DNA of 53,937 bases, taken from an uncultured virus (IMG/VR IMGVR_UViG_3300044732_000510) (Duplodnaviria > Heunggongvirae > Uroviricota > Caudoviricetes). Made by a program: the position numbers and the translations under genes. Below, piece after piece: positions 1,770 to 50,237 of the stretch. Under the pieces are notes generated by a model. It was not told where the DNA came from, did no database searches, and worked only from the letters and a program-made list of their open reading frames with translations. Position 1 is the stretch's first letter; the number at the start of each line of letters is the position of its first letter. Where the stretch lies: the IMG/VR virus record IMGVR_UViG_3300044732_000510; one strand, written 5' to 3'.

Positions 1770-4700
1770 TACCTTAAAGAATATTGATTTTTACTATTGA
1801 ATAACTTAAGTATCATGTTAGTATCTCTTGAGTTAGTTTTACTAAGGTACATAAAGTTAACCATGTGCCGGAATTTTTTTCTCTGCAAAAGAGATTTGTT
1901 ATAGTCTACAGCTGTAGGATTGATAGCTTTTTTATAACCATTAGCTTCAGTAATCCATAACATATTCTCAGGATAGTTTCCTAATAAAGTTGTAGTACCT
2001 GGAATAAGCTGTCCTTGTGGTGGATAACCTGATCCATTAGGAAATTCTCCACGGTCTTTTGTAATATCCCAGAATTGGTTTACTCTGTATTTATTTTCTT
2101 CTTTAGAGAATAAGATATCAAATGAGTTATTGTTTACATTAAGCTGTGGATATAATAAAGACAGTGCTATATTATTCTTAGGGAATACATTAAGATTCAA
2201 GTATCCGGAGATTTGTTCTGAGTTGTGTATAACCAGTCTATCAAAGTTATAGTCTAATACATGGAACTGGTCAGTACAGAATCTCTTCTCTCTTCTATAG
2301 CATTCAAGTACATACTCTATACTTTTTACTGTTGTTACTGTTTGACCTGTACTTACAGGGAACTCAATCTCAAAAGGATATTGTACCCCATAAAAATTAC
2401 AATAGTCACCACAGTTAGCACCATGCTTATAGAATTGATTTGCTCTAGTTGTTATAAAACTATCTTTAGTGGGTATAACAAGATCTGGATGCCAGTCATG
2501 GAATGAAATCCAAAACTGAGACTTAGGGTCATAACTCACTGTCCATGAAGCATCTTCAAATATTCTTGAATCTCCAAGTGCAAGTTTAACAGGTACATCT
2601 GAAGGTTTACCATCCACATAAGGATAATAATTAAAATAACTTTCTTTACCTGAATTTACATTAATCACTCTTCCTGCTAACGGAAAACCATCAGGACCTA
2701 TTTCTTTTAACTTATAATCTTTCTTACAGAAGTAAAGTACAGAGTTATAATTATCAAACACTGCTTGTGTTCCAACACCAGCCACCGGGTTATCAGTATA
2801 AGGGTAATCAGGAAAATCCTCAACTAATTTACATGGTAAGAAATAGTCAAACCACCATTTCATACCAGCTTGAGATACTTCTTGCAACCCTTCACCATAT
2901 GAGAATACTTTACCTTGATCTTGAGATATATAATAGAGTCCTGCCGGAGTAGATATTACTGACAATCTTCCTTGAGATGAACCATACATGTAAGGTCTAT
3001 CTGCTACCACAATATTTTGCGGATCTCTTGCAAATACACCTCCGTCACCTATAATAACTTTAGTTCCTGATCCATCCATCTCAAGTGTATCTACACCTTG
3101 GAATACTATTGGACTATCATTTTTAAATGTAACAAAAGCTCCAGTCTTAGCAAAGTTTTTAACCCCGCTGATTTGACTAACAAAATCTTTTCTATTTAAC
3201 GGCAAGAATATAAACCAACCATCAGTAGATGATGTTTGTGATACAGGTAATGAATATGTAATTGTATTTGGATAATAAGTATAACATAACTCAGCAACTT
3301 CAGGATTATAATACACACTTTGTAAAAATCCAAATGAAGTATATCTGTTTGTTAATCTTGTAATACTTAATGAGTAGTCATACAGATAAAAGTTACCTTC
3401 TGTTGCAGTTAACTTATCCATTCTGAACATAGTCTCTAAGTCTGTGTATCTATATGGATTGTAACATTTTTCATAATCAAAAGTACCAACTTCTCTAAAG
3501 TCATTGATTACATCAGACTCTACAAAAAAGTCTCTTACCCCAGATGCTGATAAATAGAAATATGAGTTCTTTGCATTAGTAAATCCAGGATAACCCCCAC
3601 CTATACCAAAAGGCTTATCTGTTTCTCTTATATAATATTGATTATCTAAATTAAAATAATCATTAGGTAAAAATCCTGTACCTGTAGTAGAGTTATTAAA
3701 TAAAGCAGACCATGCACCAATACTGGTTATGTTAATTTGTGATACATCATATCTTTCACTATTAGCCCAGTATCTAGGCTCAGGTATCATCTGACTATTA
3801 AAGTAGTTATACTCATAACCATTGGGTTCTGTATACAACCAGTTGTAGAAAAAGAACATTGGATTCTTTTCTGTAAATCTTGTTATGTAAGTATCACCAC
3901 CAAATATTACAGGAGTTTCATTAATTCTTTTTTGTACAAGAACTTTATCTATTACTGATATTGGAGTAATTGTAGATGGTAGTGCTGTATAATTAAATTT
4001 TTGCTCACATGGTGTAATTGGAAACTGAGTAATAGTATTTAATTGACCATACTGATCATCATTGTCTATTTTCATAGCACCATAGTGACTTCCTATTCTT
4101 GTGCCAAATTCTATGCTTTTTTTCTTTTCATTAATCTTTGGACCAGTTGGACCTAGTTCATCATCAAACATACCAAGGCTACCAAGTGATATATCTAATC
4201 CACTAGTACCTGTTACTAATAATTTAGGCCCATCTGTCACTGGAGTATTAGCTCTCTCTGTTCTTAGCATTAATAACTGACCTCTCTTGTAGTTATTAAT
4301 AGTGTATTTTTGAAATGGATCATTGGTAATAGTATCATTATAATCATCTATTTCAAATGAGATATTTTTAAATATATAAGATGAATCTGCTATTTTAAAT
4401 CTCTTTGTATCATTTATATTAAATGGGTTAAACTTGTCATATAAACCATGACCAATAAGCTGTAATGCATATTGTCTAAATGGTGTAAATGCATATATTA
4501 ATTCTTGAGCAGCTTGTGCTCCTTCCATAAAATAAAATCCAGATTGTTGTACACCGCTCAATGTATTAAATAAAGCGTCAGTCCATGATGGTAATAAACT
4601 AGCACCAGATTGTTCAACTGTATAAGATGCTGCATTTGTAACACCACCAAGCCTACCTCCTGCAAGATTATTATTTCTTGCAAAAACAGATTGTCCATCT

Positions 4701-43825: not shown

Positions 43826-44458
43826 TTATTCTGTATCATAAAACATTCTTTCAGAATCTTCTGTATTCCATTTTTCATAACCCTCACAATTGTAGTAGTC
43901 TTTGTTAACCAGATAGTCAGGTCTCTCAGGAAAAGGCTTAGTAACAAAGCTAGGTTCAGACCACTTAATCCGGTTGTTAGGTTGTAGTGCTATCTGACCA
44001 TTGTCCAGGAGAATAATATGGTGACTCTTATGTTCTAGTGCATCTTCAGCCAGAGACAAGTCTGTGTTCATATCATTACTACCCCAGTTAATAGTAGCAT
44101 AGTAGTTTCCTTTGTGGAACTTTTTATCTTTCATATAAACTTCCACTGGAGTATCATAAAGATATGACAGATGTAACAGAGTAAAGTTATAGGAGAAACA
44201 ATTCCATATCTGTAAGTAGTGAAACGGTAGGTCAGGATCCGGTAGCTTTGGTTCAGTCAGTAATGCATGGGCTGGTAGCTTATCTCTAAGCACTCCATTG
44301 TCTAACAGTACCTGGAACAGTGCAGCTTGACCCGGCATACACCTAACTGAAATGATAACCCCCGGGGTAAATTCTCCTAAACCCTTAGTGTGCTGATACA
44401 TGTACTCATTCCTAACATATACCTTCAGTGGAAAAAAATTGTGTTCTATATATGCCAT
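43826..44458 (-). CDS. Conserved phage hypothetical protein
   Basis: VRNEY, LQIWNCFSY and HKSHH...LDNGQIA.QPNNR motifs. The start was moved to MAYIEH. Confidence 0.7.
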   Translation of the reverse strand: MAYIEHNFFPLKVYVRNEYMYQHTKGLGEFTPGVIISVRCMPGQAALFQVLLDNGVLRDKLPAHALLTEPKLPDPDLPFHYLQIWNCFSYNFTLLHLSYLYDTPVEVYMKDKKFHKGNYYATINWGSNDMNTDLSLAEDALEHKSHHIILLDNGQIALQPNNRIKWSEPSFVTKPFPERPDYLVNKDYYNCEGYEKWNTEDSERMFYDTE

Positions 44459-44931
44459 GTAACAAAGATATAAAAAAATCCCGGACTGTAACACCCGGGA
44501 CTTCTTACCCAGTCCGTTGACCAGGAAACACATATCTTATTACAAAGATATAACTTTAATTAGAATGTGGTGGTATTGTATATAGTAGAATGTGATGGTA
44601 AAATGTTGCACATAAGAGAATGAGGTGGGGTATGCATGGATGAGCCCCACCCTCAGCTGGAGTTGGTGGTACCCCCCGTGAAGAAATGGCAGACAAAAAC
44701 AAATCAAGATGCAATAATATATTTTTATCTGTAGGAAATATGTATGTAATAGCATGATAGTTATCAATAGATATGTTAGATAGTATGATGTATAGTATGA
44801 TGTATATAACCAATGCTTCCTGAAATATCTCAACCAACATGTTATATATCTAACAAGCAGGCAAGCACACACAGTATATGTATATAGTGTATCTCCACTT
44901 TTAAATGATGATAATAAATAAATTAATAATT

Positions 44932-46854: not shown

Positions 46855-47247
46855 ATGAGCAAAATTGAATTTAAGCCGGAAACAACACCGGCAGGAGACA
46901 CAGTATTAGTAGCATCTATTACTGCGGAATTGGTATCTCAAGGTAGCAACCCAATTGCAAACAAAAATGGTAATGAGTTTTATCCCGTTACTATTAAGTT
47001 TGAGAATGCATTGGGTAATCAACAATCTGTACCTGCATTGTTATACAAAGGCAATGCTGATTATGGTGTTGAAAAGGGAGTTAGCTATCTTACAAAGATT
47101 ATTGCTAGTGCAGGTAGTAAACCGTTGTTTATTATGTCTCACTTAGCAAGAGGTACTGAAGCTAGCTTAGCTGACTTGGGCTTGAATATGGAAGACTTCC
47201 AAACAGCAGGAGTTATCCAAGACTTCAACAAGGTACCTAAGAAGTAA
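46855..47247 (+). CDS. Early protein, possibly OB-fold/ssDNA-binding
   Basis: Eighth cassette; beta-rich with an aromatic/Gly pattern. The fold assignment is inference. Confidence 0.5.
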   Translation: MSKIEFKPETTPAGDTVLVASITAELVSQGSNPIANKNGNEFYPVTIKFENALGNQQSVPALLYKGNADYGVEKGVSYLTKIIASAGSKPLFIMSHLARGTEASLADLGLNMEDFQTAGVIQDFNKVPKK

Positions 47248-47256
47248 GGTAATTAA

Positions 47257-47291
47257 GAGCACTCTGTAGAAATACAGGGTGTTCTTTTTTT
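47257..47291 (+). terminator. Intrinsic terminator
   Basis: AGAGCACTCTGTA-GAAA-TACAGGGTGTTCT followed by a T tract. Confidence 0.8.
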
Positions 47292-47821
47292 ATTCAGCTT
47301 GATTACTTAACCTATAGTAGGTATAGTGGCTTTATTTAAATAGTTAACCATGATATTAAATAGTTAACCATGGTTTTTTTCTTTGTGCTTCGCAGGCTTA
47401 TTTCCACTCATAAGGGAGTGGGGAAGATAGCGTGGAATGATCCGGTCAAGTAGGAATAGTAAGTACTATTATGGCTGTTTACACTACAATACACACATAC
47501 TGCATACTAGCCCGGGAATCATTCTGACTCTGAGTATATAAATTGTGCAGGATTAGTATAGAAAAATGTGTAAGAGAGTGTTAAAATGGGTGTTAAACTC
47601 TCCACGGTCACATTAGTAAAAGTAAAAGCTAACAATCTAGAACTAAGCTCAATATTAATATATATGGCTAGAACTAGCTTAATAAATTACACAGACTCTT
47701 ACTAAACTAACTTATTACTATTACTATATATTATTACTATTAAGTAAGAGTGTTGGACAGTAATATCTTCCGGGGATTATTAATCCGGTCAAAATATGAT
47801 TATTAACTTAAATTAAAACTT

Positions 47822-48184
47822 ATGATTATTACAGCTGAACACTTAGAACAATTACCTAATCACCCTAAAGTAGAAGAAATGATTAGGCTACACTATCCTC
47901 ATTTATATAGCAGATATAAATTAGTGAAACTTAAACAATCTCATAGACCGGAATCTAAGAGATTTGAGGGTAAACTTAATGAAAGAAGTAGCACATATGA
48001 AACTAGAAAAAGAACTAGACCATGGGATAACTGTTGGTTTAGTAATAAACCACATATTATTAATCTTACTGTAGAAGAAGCAGTAAGTAGGTATCCGGAT
48101 TATATGTTGTGGTGCTATAAAAACTTAAGTATCAAATGGTCTACACATACTATAAAACTATTTACCACAAGGTTTCAGGCATAA
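47822..48184 (+). CDS. Hypothetical protein
   Basis: C-terminal F..K.....TV.E.....PDY..W motif reminiscent of exonuclease X C-terminal/DUF3820-like modules. Confidence 0.55.
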   Translation: MIITAEHLEQLPNHPKVEEMIRLHYPHLYSRYKLVKLKQSHRPESKRFEGKLNERSSTYETRKRTRPWDNCWFSNKPHIINLTVEEAVSRYPDYMLWCYKNLSIKWSTHTIKLFTTRFQA

Positions 48185-48225
48185 CCTCTCATCCTGTAAA
48201 GCAGGGGTTGACTTGTGGTATATAT

Positions 48226-48368
48226 ACTCTCATCCAAGCAGGTGTATTACCAAGATAAAAGGAATTTAAAGGTGTAACAGTAAGGTTACTGTCTTTTATG
48301 GAGATATATATCAAGGATTGCAACCTTGTACTTATAGTAATATAAGTATCCAATATTTGGATGAGAGT
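48226..48368 (+). ncRNA. Candidate multi-branched structured RNA
   Basis: A perfect 12-bp closing stem (48226-48237/48357-48368) encloses several hairpins, including TACTTATA-GTAA-TATAAGTA. Confidence 0.55.
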
Positions 48369-48478
48369 TTTTAATGCACCATTCCTGATTCCCAAGGTCA
48401 GGCAGTTGTAATCGAAATTAGATGTATGTATATAACACATACTACCTATAGGTTACAACTGAGTGCAGAGGGGTCTTT
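48366..48478 (+). ncRNA. Twister-like self-cleaving ribozyme
   Basis: UAA-UGCA-CC...CCUGA-UUCCCAAGG-UCAGG-[P5 CAGUUGUAA/UUACAACUG]-AG-UGCA-GAGGG reproduces the twister order (U|AA, P2, T2, P4 loop UCCCAAG, P2', GAGGG). P1 is weak. Confidence 0.6.
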
Positions 48479-48526
48479 TAACTAGTAACTTAATTAATTA
48501 TTTATAAATCTCTAAAACCAGAACTT

Positions 48527-49438
48527 ATGAGAAACTTGTCTACAAAAGGGTTGAGCATGTCCCAAGCACAAAGTATTAGTAATCTTTGTAACCAAAATGC
48601 TATAGAAATCCAAAGAGAATTGGATTCTTACAACAACTGTAGTAAATCTATTACAGTTGCCGGTCAGGTATATTCATTACAAGATGGAGTGCCTATGCCG
48701 GATAACATCCTTGACTTATTGAAGAATAAGGGTGACTTACATGCTGCTCAAGCTTTCTTAATGGAAGCTATTAGGAGTAAAGATGCCATGATATCAAGTA
48801 TCAAGAATAGTCAGCCTGATTTATCTCACTTAGTTAAACCTGAGAGAGAGTTAATAGATGACTATGAGGTTGAGTATGGTGTTGAAGAGTCATGGGGTTG
48901 GACTCAGTTATCTGATGCTGAGTATGCTGAGTATCTTCAAGCTGAAGCTTTAGCTTCTCATCTTGGTCAGTTTATCCATAAAAGTGGTAAACTAACTCAG
49001 TTGAGAAAAGAACTACCTAATACTCCTAGTATTGAGTGGTTTGAAGTTGAGGACGGGAAGAAGACTCCAGTGAAGGTGACTAAGCATCATTTAGCTCCGG
49101 TCTTGATGAGTGTTCATGAGAATATTGCTGCAGAGCATAGAGTTCATGAGCAACGTGTAAATTATTACAAAGCTAAGGTTAAAAACTTAGTTAGTGATGA
49201 GAATGCACGCATTCAGAGAGTTAATGCAGACAAAGCTGCTGAGTTCTTAAAGCTTGAGAAAGAAGCTCATGAGAAGTATCAGTTAGCAATGGATGCTTAC
49301 AATGGTGAGATACTGAGACTTACTATGGAGTTTAATAGTCAACGTGAGTTGGATATTAAAGCTGCTGCAGCATTGAGAATCAATGTTGATCCTAGATTTC
49401 AGCATGTAATTGATATGTTCATTACACCTGAGAAATAG
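48527..49438 (+). CDS. 303-aa alpha-helical/coiled-coil protein of unknown function
   Basis: Long ORF with a strongly biased codon set and long helical segments; N-terminal GLSMSQAQSISNLCNQ. Confidence 0.85.
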   Translation: MRNLSTKGLSMSQAQSISNLCNQNAIEIQRELDSYNNCSKSITVAGQVYSLQDGVPMPDNILDLLKNKGDLHAAQAFLMEAIRSKDAMISSIKNSQPDLSHLVKPERELIDDYEVEYGVEESWGWTQLSDAEYAEYLQAEALASHLGQFIHKSGKLTQLRKELPNTPSIEWFEVEDGKKTPVKVTKHHLAPVLMSVHENIAAEHRVHEQRVNYYKAKVKNLVSDENARIQRVNADKAAEFLKLEKEAHEKYQLAMDAYNGEILRLTMEFNSQRELDIKAAAALRINVDPRFQHVIDMFITPEK

Positions 49439-49447
49439 TGTACTAAT

Positions 49448-49753
49448 TAGGTGAGTAAGAGATAGGCACAAGCTGATTCTCTTACTCTTTATACCTAGTG
49501 ACAGGAATCCAGAACAACTAAAATTCAATGGTTGATTACCATTATACAATGAATACTTAATAGTATAAAACCGCTTCTCTTCAAATTATAAAAACTGAGA
49601 TAGAACTCATCATCAGACAGGTTATGCATAAAAACAAAATATGCAATTGGCTGATAACAATGAGACTTAGTATTTGTATTTGTCTTTGCAGAAGAGAAGG
49701 TCTTTGACTTAGTATTTGTATTTGATTTTAGCTATATGTTCCTGTCACAAGGT
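49448..49753 (+). ncRNA. Candidate ~310-nt structured ncRNA with duplicated hexamer tracts
   Basis: Nested stems at 49453-62/49478-87, 49498-507/49739-48, 49518-24/49725-31, 49574-82/49691-99, 49606-10/49660-64, 49612-16/49651-55 and 49625-30/49640-45. A 19-nt direct repeat lies at 49664 and 49706. Confidence 0.7.
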
Positions 49754-49790
49754 GACTATATATATTAATTATTCACTCAAAAATAAACTT

Positions 49791-49976
49791 ATGAAGAAAG
49801 TAACTATTGAGGATCTTATTGTCCTCACAGAAGATTATGCCTTACAACTAGGTGTTTCTCTTGAATCTCTTATACAGGAGAAACTTAAAGAGAATTTCCG
49901 GATTGATAAAGAATTTAACCATCCTGCAGTTGGACAGGTAGTTTACATAGTGAGAGATTATTCTCTTGCTTCTTAA
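49791..49976 (+). CDS. Hypothetical protein
   Basis: ATG after an A-rich leader (MKKVTIEDL). Confidence 0.6.
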   Translation: MKKVTIEDLIVLTEDYALQLGVSLESLIQEKLKENFRIDKEFNHPAVGQVVYIVRDYSLAS

Positions 49977-50003
49977 TTTAGTAATTTATAAAAACAAAAT
50001 AGT

Positions 50004-50237
50004 ATGAATGCAACTATGATTAACAACAGAGAGTTTGTAGAAACTCTGCATGCAAGGGAGTCTAACATTAACTTAAGACTTCTTGTTTCCGCAACAAAAT
50101 TCTATGGAAAGGGATTGGATGACAAAAGCAAACAACAACTATTTGCTCTTCCATTGGAAGATAAACTGTGGTTATTGAATGAGTATGATCAGGAGATTGT
50201 ACCTTATCCACCAGCAGATTTGGATAATATTTATTAA
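50004..50237 (+). CDS. Hypothetical protein
   Basis: Operon ORF with an A-rich leader. Confidence 0.65.
   Translation: MNATMINNREFVETLHARESNINLRLLVSATKFYGKGLDDKSKQQLFALPLEDKLWLLNEYDQEIVPYPPADLDNIY

Follow-up and report, generated by a model that had tools for sequence, protein, structure and literature searches.

Background

GOLLD and ROOL are phage RNAs that often lie near tRNA genes, and their function is described as unknown in the accessible text of PMC12286853. According to the same text, both assemble as RNA-only cages, and no protein partner is identified there for ROOL. We analysed a locus that recalls these RNAs on a 53,937-nucleotide (nt) DNA stretch, here called the window, from an uncultured tailed phage (IMG/VR record IMGVR_UViG_3300044732_000510). 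The locus contains a gene for a 303-amino-acid (aa) helical protein, which is followed by a structured RNA of about 313 nt and preceded by a twister-shaped module. Comparison with related loci pointed to an RNA-protein pair and, apart from it, a generic candidate ribozyme, and not to the single four-part system that the original prediction, made by a model from the sequence alone, had proposed. The RNA and the protein gene, which many uncultured lake phages carry side by side, probably form one RNA-protein unit.

For the module, the closest described relative is the twister ribozyme. In the accessible part of PMC5408937, the P1, P2 and P4 stems of twister are essential, P3 and P5 are optional, and cleavage takes place at a U-A step beside P1. 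Conserved letters in the L1 and L4 loops and two pseudoknots are also described there. The pseudoknots of twister, T1 and T2, join L4 with L1/L2. P1 has been reported as non-essential for cleavage in the available portion of PMC6101554.

A conserved structured RNA behind the 303-aa gene

The open reading frame (ORF) at 48527..49438 is present in the window on the + strand and encodes 303 aa. It is bounded by non-coding gaps of 342 nt (48185-48526) and 352 nt (49439-49790). The original prediction of an unannotated helical ORF with flanks of about 340 and 350 nt was accurate, since AlphaFold2 also gave a mostly helical model. Its description of both flanks as dense in stems held as well. The upstream flank folded better than dinucleotide shuffles with z -2.94 (1 of 100 shuffles as good), and the downstream flank with z -5.10 (0 of 100). 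The gene and the parts of the downstream RNA are as follows.

48527..49438, + strand: gene for the 303-aa helical protein (ORF; undescribed family)
About 49447..49759, + strand: structured RNA, about 313 nt (from covariation and the covariance model)
49448-49450 with 49756-49758, + strand: helix P0, 3 base pairs (bp); U-A is exchanged for A-U in 7 of 47 sequences
49453-49462 with 49478-49487, + strand: hairpin Pa, with a conserved apical loop
49494-49507 with 49739-49752, + strand: long-range helix Pb
49508-49573, + strand: variable region
49574-49582 with 49691-49699, + strand: helix Pc
49597-49599 with 49606-49608, + strand: small hairpin Pd
49612-49620 with 49647-49655, + strand: helix Pe, with a variable tip
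49661-49688, + strand: U-rich repeat tract 1, 6-nt units
49701-49731, + strand: U-rich repeat tract 2, 6-nt units

We retrieved 65 viral-contig loci that encode relatives of the protein, with protein identity ranging from 100% to 26%. By blastn, the downstream flank was collinear directly behind the stop codon in about 47 of them, with 72-95% nucleotide identity over about 320 nt, and partial matches were obtained in more distant loci. In most loci, the RNA began no more than about 10 nt past the stop codon. A MAFFT alignment of 36 distinct flanks contained long invariant blocks, and RNAalifold predicted 50 pairs from it, 26 of which showed compensatory changes. A covariance model (R1, 317 positions) built from the trimmed alignment of flanks found a single copy in the window, at 49445-49764, with 314.6 bits. 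When 47 distinct sequences were aligned to the model, 98.9% of cells paired, compared with 43-49% when the partners were slid by 1-3 columns, and double changes were seen in 42 of 48 pairs, compared with 17-20 after sliding. None of 500 shuffles matched these pairing values. An alignment of this kind is biased towards its own structure, and RNAalifold on the MAFFT alignment therefore serves as the independent check. The co-occurrence and covariation check on homologue flanks, which the original prediction had proposed, thus pointed to a conserved and covarying downstream RNA.

The same alignment bears on the strand and on the nature of the element. G-U pairs made up 143 of 2204 cells (summed over the pair table of the 47 sequences), and because these would mismatch on the other strand, the folded strand is the + strand. 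The pairing pattern indicates that the downstream element works single-stranded, not as duplex DNA. The direct TTTG-containing repeats adjoin the gene of a possible binding protein, as would be expected if the protein bound the flank as DNA, whether as an origin, an iteron array or a promoter cluster. Such a DNA-level element is hard to reconcile with compensatory changes that keep the helices, including the G-U cells on one strand only, or with RNA-library contigs that match the element, and we consider its probability close to negligible.

The RNA was conserved more strongly than the gene. In L007 the protein was 79% identical and the RNA 94.7%, and in L021 the values were 75% and 94% (locus numbers are given where loci need to be told apart). 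A coding reading of the RNA was rejected: the longest stop-free stretch ranged from 39 to 74 codons in 36 sequences and 1-2 nt indels occurred, so that no conserved frame was present. A naive all-pairs covariation scan for extra helices or pseudoknots returned mostly lineage noise, and only the 3-bp P0 looked real.

At the gathering score, Rfam gave 0 matches in the whole window, and at E ≤ 10 it gave chance snoRNA and miRNA rows only in 47200-50100 and 48355-48495. At these thresholds the downstream RNA matched no family, and the window was unmatched by the GOLLD and ROOL models at the gathering score, as was 47200-50100 at E ≤ 10. The same search detected a true GOLLD in another locus, L102, so the test works on such DNA.

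The two U-rich tracts flank the 3' strand of Pc, and their 6-nt units end in UUG or UAG. Both were near-invariant and unpaired in the consensus, with the TTTG columns invariant in 36 sequences. The tracts are the candidate protein-binding sites.

Two variants point to the core of the RNA. The L062 RNA lacks the Pd/Pe domain and carries a tRNA-shaped domain (L062:4030-4100) in its variable region. This domain is circularly permuted: a T arm comes first, an acceptor stem capped by a 3-nt loop next and a D arm last, and its anticodon stem opens into the RNA. The L190 RNA is reduced and also lacks the Pd/Pe domain. Pc and the U-rich tracts were retained in both variants, which suggests that they belong to the core. 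In L062, a tmRNA gene and a tRNA-Gln were also seen 0.9-1.5 kb downstream.

Linkage of the RNA to the protein gene

The RNA followed the protein gene nearly everywhere. R1 located it behind the gene in 63 of the 65 viral loci (61 at full length and 2 cut by the locus end), the misses being L061 and L065, of which L065 is a doubtful homologue. The matches included contigs of 200-675 kb on which the protein was only 44-51% identical. Together with the double changes in 42 of 48 pairs, this bears out the original prediction that a structured downstream RNA is tied to the protein gene.

The reverse search gave the same picture. A pattern derived from the conserved block of the RNA retrieved 63 viral loci, many of whose contigs were shared with the protein-based set. 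The gene lay directly upstream at a near-constant distance in 60 of these; two others held no RNA by the model, and one (L190) had the gene elsewhere on the contig. Among the RNA-side loci that truly hold the RNA, 60 of 61 therefore have the gene directly upstream. In a collection of 185,579 species genomes, just 5 loci encoded a relative of the protein, all on contigs of metagenome-assembled genomes, and the RNA followed the gene in 4 of them, the fifth being cut inside the gene.

What surrounds the pair was variable. The first gene past the RNA differed between loci, so the RNA goes with the 303-aa gene, not with the downstream neighbour. Among 95 ORFs neighbouring the pair at 11 distant loci, 16 had Pfam families and no annotated neighbour recurred beside the pair, which therefore looks like a self-contained two-gene module. 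A tRNA-Arg(TCT) was found 0.8-2.7 kb downstream in 14 of 34 loci, and a tRNA or tmRNA within 3 kb in 17 of 34.

L190 was the only case found of a split pair. This locus lies on the same contig as L061. Its reduced RNA (L190:781-1050, - strand) scores 84.7 bits and follows an unrelated gene of 193 aa; the homologue of the 303-aa gene is found about 4.8 kb upstream of this RNA. The pair was split here, yet both parts were kept, which argues against a purely cis-acting 3' element.

Such an element might be a structured mRNA end, a stabiliser or an operator for autoregulation, with no function in trans. The short distance between the stop codon and the RNA suits it, as do the RNA-library contig that joins the ORF end to the RNA and the lack of a clear promoter between the two. 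However, a 313-nt RNA with six helices and long invariant unpaired blocks exceeds the needs of end protection, and it is more conserved than the coding sequence. The placement of the L190 RNA behind another gene, and a copy of the twister-shaped module at the exact 3' end of the RNA in L048, as if releasing it, also do not fit. We judge a purely cis-acting element to be unlikely.

The detachment of the L190 RNA from the gene can be read in another way, as a sign that the RNA functions alone, for example by self-assembling like ROOL or GOLLD, the gene being linked by a shared promoter or serving an unrelated task. The presence of GOLLD in relatives within the phage group and the downstream tRNA genes in the 14 loci are in keeping with this. 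An RNA-only function does not account for adjacency that is kept down to 44% protein identity while the other neighbours all change, or for the retention of both parts on the one contig where they are separated, and we regard it as rather improbable.

The protein family and its predicted structure

The 303-aa protein belongs to a large family without a name. A search at E ≤ 1e-3 found 2131 relatives, all unnamed, in a 90%-identity collection. Representatives of 50%-identity clusters numbered 835, 543 of these at E ≤ 1e-10. Nearly all relatives are about 300 aa long, and no fusions were seen. Neither DNA nor protein matched the INPHARED cultured-phage records, among which near-identical ones may be missing.

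Domain and profile searches gave no assignment. The best Pfam match was TPR_8 with E 0.013, under its cut-off, and none of 25 distant relatives reached a Pfam cut-off. The best PHROG match was a family of unknown function with E 1.3e-3, so nothing was significant there, and a profile search of the PDB gave nothing below E 0.29. The best match in the ESM Atlas (0.79) was an unnamed cluster and nothing usable was obtained, while BFVD contained only an unnamed homologue with 48% identity.

A confident AlphaFold2 model built with 24 aligned relatives had a predicted local distance difference test (pLDDT) value of 86.5 and a predicted template-modelling score (pTM) of 0.77. The predicted fold, which is mostly helical, consists of two repeats of a helix, a β-hairpin and a long helix, followed by a C-terminal helical hairpin. 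Foldseek found no match of this model in the PDB at E ≤ 1e-3. A wide VIA-align structural search returned generic helical matches only, the best with Z 6.7 and a root-mean-square deviation of 7.8 Å over 138 aligned residues. Lysine, arginine, histidine and aromatics are frequent among the invariant residues, which include K85, R160, Y213, K215, K217 and K219, and a block rich in them reads VNYYKAKVKNL.

A two-copy complex model scored 0.58, against 0.00 for the best control. Among proteins of solved structure, 20 of 30 one-chain pairs and 1 of 23 single chains reached this score. The two-copy runs agreed in at least 97% of contacts, with a partner pLDDT of at least 88. The model lends support to a predicted symmetric homodimer. 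A symmetric dimer facing two similar RNA tracts would be an attractive fit.

A widespread twister-shaped module and the upstream flank

The features upstream of the gene are as follows.

48185..48371, + strand: upstream spacer, a mosaic of short recurring pieces (blastn against the 65 loci)
48372..48473, + strand: twister-shaped module, candidate self-cleaving ribozyme (from covariation)
48372/48373, + strand: U/A step of the module
48375-48378 with 48464-48467, + strand: module stem P2
48384-48388 with 48398-48402, + strand: module stem P4, with the L4 loop at 48389-48397
48403-48461, + strand: module hairpin P5
48391-48393 with 48470-48472, + strand: candidate pseudoknot CCC:GGG
48379-48380 with 48396-48397, + strand: candidate pseudoknot CC:GG
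48474..48526, + strand: 53-nt leader, from the module to the start codon

The module runs from UAA through a P2 strand of 4-5 bp and a short linker to a 5-bp P4 hairpin with the loop UUCCCAAGG, and then through a P5 hairpin of variable length and the P2 return strand to GAGGG. A degenerate pattern showed that at least 122 stretches in viral contigs carry it. Among the matches listed, 129 instances were extracted, 122 with the 3' half and 110 of them unique; the P5 insert ranged from 12 to 255 nt, and the minimal module was 54 nt long.

Covariation was examined in the 25 of the 110 unique instances that have a short P5. In these 25 aligned sequences 92.3% of cells paired, compared with 30-46% when the partners were slid. 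Double changes occurred in 5 of 5 pairs of P4, 4 of 5 of P5 and 1 of 4 of P2, with 98-100% of cells paired, and the second module copy in L048 added a further P2 pair change, from C-G to U-A. P1 paired in 60% of cells. The CCC:GGG and CC:GG pseudoknot strands were complementary in all 25 sequences, their letters being fixed by the search pattern and never varying. A covariance model of the module (R2) scored 104.5 bits in the window.

These comparisons indicate that the module is conserved across its instances. The Rfam twister models (twister-P1, -P3 and -P5) gave no match at E ≤ 10 in 47200-50100, in 48355-48495 or in six loci that included the 54-nt form (L080), and RF03160 (twister-P1) matched 0 of 3 records. 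The original prediction of a twister-like motif near 48372 agrees with the shape of the module and with its U/A step at 48372/48373. Since no Rfam twister model detects it, we regard the module as a candidate ribozyme with a twister shape and leave it outside the twister class.

The module was not specific to the 303-aa gene; it is separate, generic and widespread. R2 found it in 23 of 38 loci, and it lay upstream of the protein gene in 22 of them, at distances of 41 nt to about 1.8 kb and often with genes between. The closest placement was in the window and four close loci, where the R2 match ended 41-49 nt before the start codon. No module was present within 3 kb in 15 of the 38 loci, which include distant homologues on large contigs. 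The 110 unique instances listed were intergenic. The preceding ORF end, identified for 64 of them, was a median of 128 nt away, and the next ATG, with a downstream ORF identified for 61, followed after a median of 54 nt. In L048, two copies were located downstream of the pair, at 2420-2544 and 2936-3009. The start of the first coincides exactly with the 3' end of the 313-nt RNA (U/A step 2428/2429), as if it were placed to release the RNA. The simplest reading of these placements is a standard transcript-cutting unit set before genes and, at times, behind structured RNAs.

Two narrower roles of the module were rejected. Processing of tRNAs was set aside because no tRNA was present within 400 nt in 60 of 60 loci, and processing of GOLLD ends as a general role was set aside because GOLLD lay upstream in only 2 of the 110 unique instances listed. 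Such an arrangement is seen at L102:1-391 (and in L110), where the 3' part of a GOLLD, scoring 90 bits (RF02032, E 3e-23) and truncated at the start of the locus, stops about 10 nt short of a twister-like module. This GOLLD is possibly trimmed at its 3' end by the module.

The upstream flank did not behave as one RNA. Blastn against the 65 loci gave short pieces only (query 1-59, 37-59 and 119-145) at variable distances, and only L001 and L002, which are identical loci, matched the whole flank. Across the 65 loci there was no comparative evidence for a single conserved RNA in 48185-48371, and the structured upstream RNA that had been claimed resolved into a mosaic of short recurring pieces. 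A single-sequence fold contained a long-range stem of 13 bp (48226-48238 with 48356-48368), which stops 4 nt short of the U/A step. The last 40-50 nt were the only part of the flank that always adjoined the ORF. Within the flank, the 20-nt core (TATACTCTCATCCAAGCAGG) of a 23-nt stretch at 48221-48243 recurred exactly in 13 of 250 retrieved loci, and a similar CTCTCATCC..CAGG unit lies directly behind the preceding stop codon, at 48186-48207. The stretch at 48221-48243 may serve as a promoter or a processing site, or may be a small fold at a gene end.

The upstream and downstream parts had been combined into one dedicated unit made up of an upstream structured RNA, a twister-like ribozyme, the protein and the downstream RNA. 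The 41-49 nt spacing in the window and its four close loci favours this, as does the occurrence of the module somewhere upstream on the same strand in 22 of the 38 loci. The distances of up to about 1.8 kb with other genes between, the 15 loci that have no module within 3 kb, the at least 122 other sites at which the module usually stands about 54 nt before another gene, and the lack of conservation of the remaining flank as a unit all speak against it, and we consider the four-part unit very unlikely. By the same comparisons, a defined 5' end, if the module cleaves, is the only part of the dedicated-system model that the module would support.

RNA-library contigs

Small shares of a 1.8-kb stretch of the window were contained in 24 sequencing runs, 14 of which are recorded as RNA, and most of the 24 came from lake, river or other freshwater samples. 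Contigs from four RNA libraries of four studies were mapped to the stretch. A 331-nt contig (X2) spans 49412-49724, a 322-nt contig (X4) spans 49455-49755, and a 345-nt contig (X15) spans 49146-49495, joining the ORF end to the first 57 nt of the RNA. Contig cover was sparse or absent over most of the ORF in X2 and X4, where coverage holes and depth are uninformative on abundance. The letters beside 49412 (X2) and 49755 (X4), which we take to be adapter, are at most a weak hint of RNA ends. Since ends, strand and level cannot be read from contigs and DNA may be present in the libraries, the contigs are a weak hint that the element exists as RNA and can be joined to the 3' part of the ORF.

Genomic setting and neighbouring genes

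The window is part of a tailed-phage genome. Late genes on the - strand, including those for the large terminase, portal, major head protein, tail fibre and endolysin, occupy positions 1 to about 45000. From 45118 on, a + strand arm carries small unknown genes, and the 303-aa gene is located there. The tight gene packing against which its spacers had been judged unusual holds for the late-gene block on the - strand and fails for the + strand arm. According to the ORF list, the arm has further long gaps of 275, 232, 126 and 575 nt, so long spacers are not special to the 303-aa gene. Terminator-like sites were also frequent in the arm (20 observed, 3.4 expected). A long non-coding gap of 574 nt, 47248-47821, opens with a strong terminator-like hairpin at 47255-47286; it was poorly conserved among relatives and had no Rfam match.

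A tRNA scan of the window found no tRNA. Three genes in succession share the start context AACTTATG, at 47813-47824, 48518-48529 and 49782-49793, and this shared context may be the translation start signal of the phage group. On the - strand, a 235-aa protein encoded at 43826-44533 matched phrog_3704 (ferredoxin-type auxiliary genes) with E 3e-62.

Several genes were noted near the pair in other loci. In L052, a cyclic-phosphate-processing receiver domain adjoins an ADP-ribosyltransferase (L052:833-1787). A peptide deformylase gene is present in two huge-phage relatives (L057:5774-6325 and L058:4506-5057), and an intein with a LAGLIDADG endonuclease in L061 (420-2738). A type IX secretion signal domain in an L051 protein (2188-4170) suggests that the hosts are Bacteroidota.

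Interpretation

The best explanation of these data is that the 303-aa gene and the RNA of about 313 nt are co-inherited and that their products make up a ribonucleoprotein acting in trans. We put the probability of this reading at about 0.5. The structure of the RNA and its linkage to the gene are demonstrated by the comparison of related loci, while the later steps are proposals. The gene and the RNA would be co-transcribed from the + strand. The RNA would fold into a closed multi-helix body formed by P0 and Pa to Pe, and a symmetric homodimer may bind it, most plausibly on the two U-rich tracts beside Pc. The resulting phage ribonucleoprotein would then act in trans during infection. The module, if active, would cut between 48372 and 48373, giving a defined 5' end to the message for protein and RNA.

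Several points weigh against a ribonucleoprotein acting in trans. Searches with Pfam, Foldseek and VIA-align gave no recognisable RNA-binding domain or fold in the protein. The tracts proposed as its binding sites are invariant, so covariation is uninformative about them. The covariance-model alignment leans towards its own structure, and the RNA-library evidence consists of contigs only. The tight adjacency of gene and RNA, with the RNA no more than about 10 nt past the stop codon in most loci, is also compatible with a cis-acting 3' element. Finally, the RNA may function alone, since ROOL and GOLLD form RNA-only cages and ROOL has no identified partner in the available text of PMC12286853.

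A more specific version of the ribonucleoprotein reading is tentative, and we hold it to be possible though doubtful. In this version, a dimeric protein with a new fold would read the two tracts of 6-nt U(U/A)G units on the 313-nt scaffold, the particle would act on host tRNA or translation, and a divergent ribozyme of the twister class would be a standard intergenic cutter. A target in tRNA or translation is hinted at by the tRNA-shaped domain in L062, the tRNA or tmRNA within 3 kb in 17 of 34 loci, the peptide deformylase neighbours and the GOLLD found in related phages.

The family is large, with 835 clusters in phages of about 80 kb to contigs of several hundred kb, and therefore likely serves a common need during infection. 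The module, if active, would widen the sequence space of a known ribozyme class beyond the Rfam models. It would also mean that phages routinely use ribozymes to set message ends.

Comparison with described systems

On the sequence and model comparisons made here, the RNA and the protein fit no described family. A literature search found nothing on the RNA, the protein or such a twister variant, with subscription journals and preprint supplements outside its reach. Readings as a type III toxin-antitoxin system, a retron, a CRISPR-like system or a TnpB-type guide RNA were dropped: no repeat array with variable spacers and no reverse transcriptase or nuclease domain was found, and the RNA, which lies behind the gene, is conserved throughout.

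In binding mode only, we take the short, evenly spaced U(U/A)G units in single-stranded RNA beside the gene of an oligomeric protein to resemble TRAP-type recognition of repeated triplets. The 303-aa protein shows no likeness to TRAP in sequence or fold and is predicted to form a dimer instead of a ring. A published plant twister presumably resembles the module in its loop and 3' strand.

The module shares with twister the order of its parts, as given in the accessible part of PMC5408937: a U-A step at the 5' edge, a short P2, a P4 with a conserved loop and an optional P5. Two loop-to-strand pseudoknots are also possible in the module. In contrast, the L2 dinucleotide, which is conserved as GC according to that text, is CC here, with GG opposite.

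The arrangement of the locus resembles that of OLE with OapA and of Y RNA (YrlA) with Ro60 (Rsr), bacterial systems in which a structured RNA gene is kept beside the gene of its partner protein. The protein differs from theirs in having no TROVE or OapA-type Pfam domain and only generic helical matches in fold searches, and the RNA matches neither OLE nor Y RNA in Rfam. The tRNA-like module of YrlA presumably resembles the L062 variant.

In habitat and setting, the RNA resembles GOLLD and ROOL, which are also phage-encoded and highly structured. Both occur in metagenomes from lakes and elsewhere and often have tRNA genes nearby. GOLLD sometimes has tRNAs embedded in it, much as the tRNA-shaped domain is embedded in the L062 variant. 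The RNA described here is smaller, at about 313 nt compared with about 580 to more than 800 nt, and it has a dedicated protein gene directly upstream, while for ROOL the accessible text of PMC12286853 identifies no partner. GOLLD and ROOL are long-standing orphans. The RNA described here comes with a dedicated, easily expressed 303-aa partner, which would offer an experimental handle.

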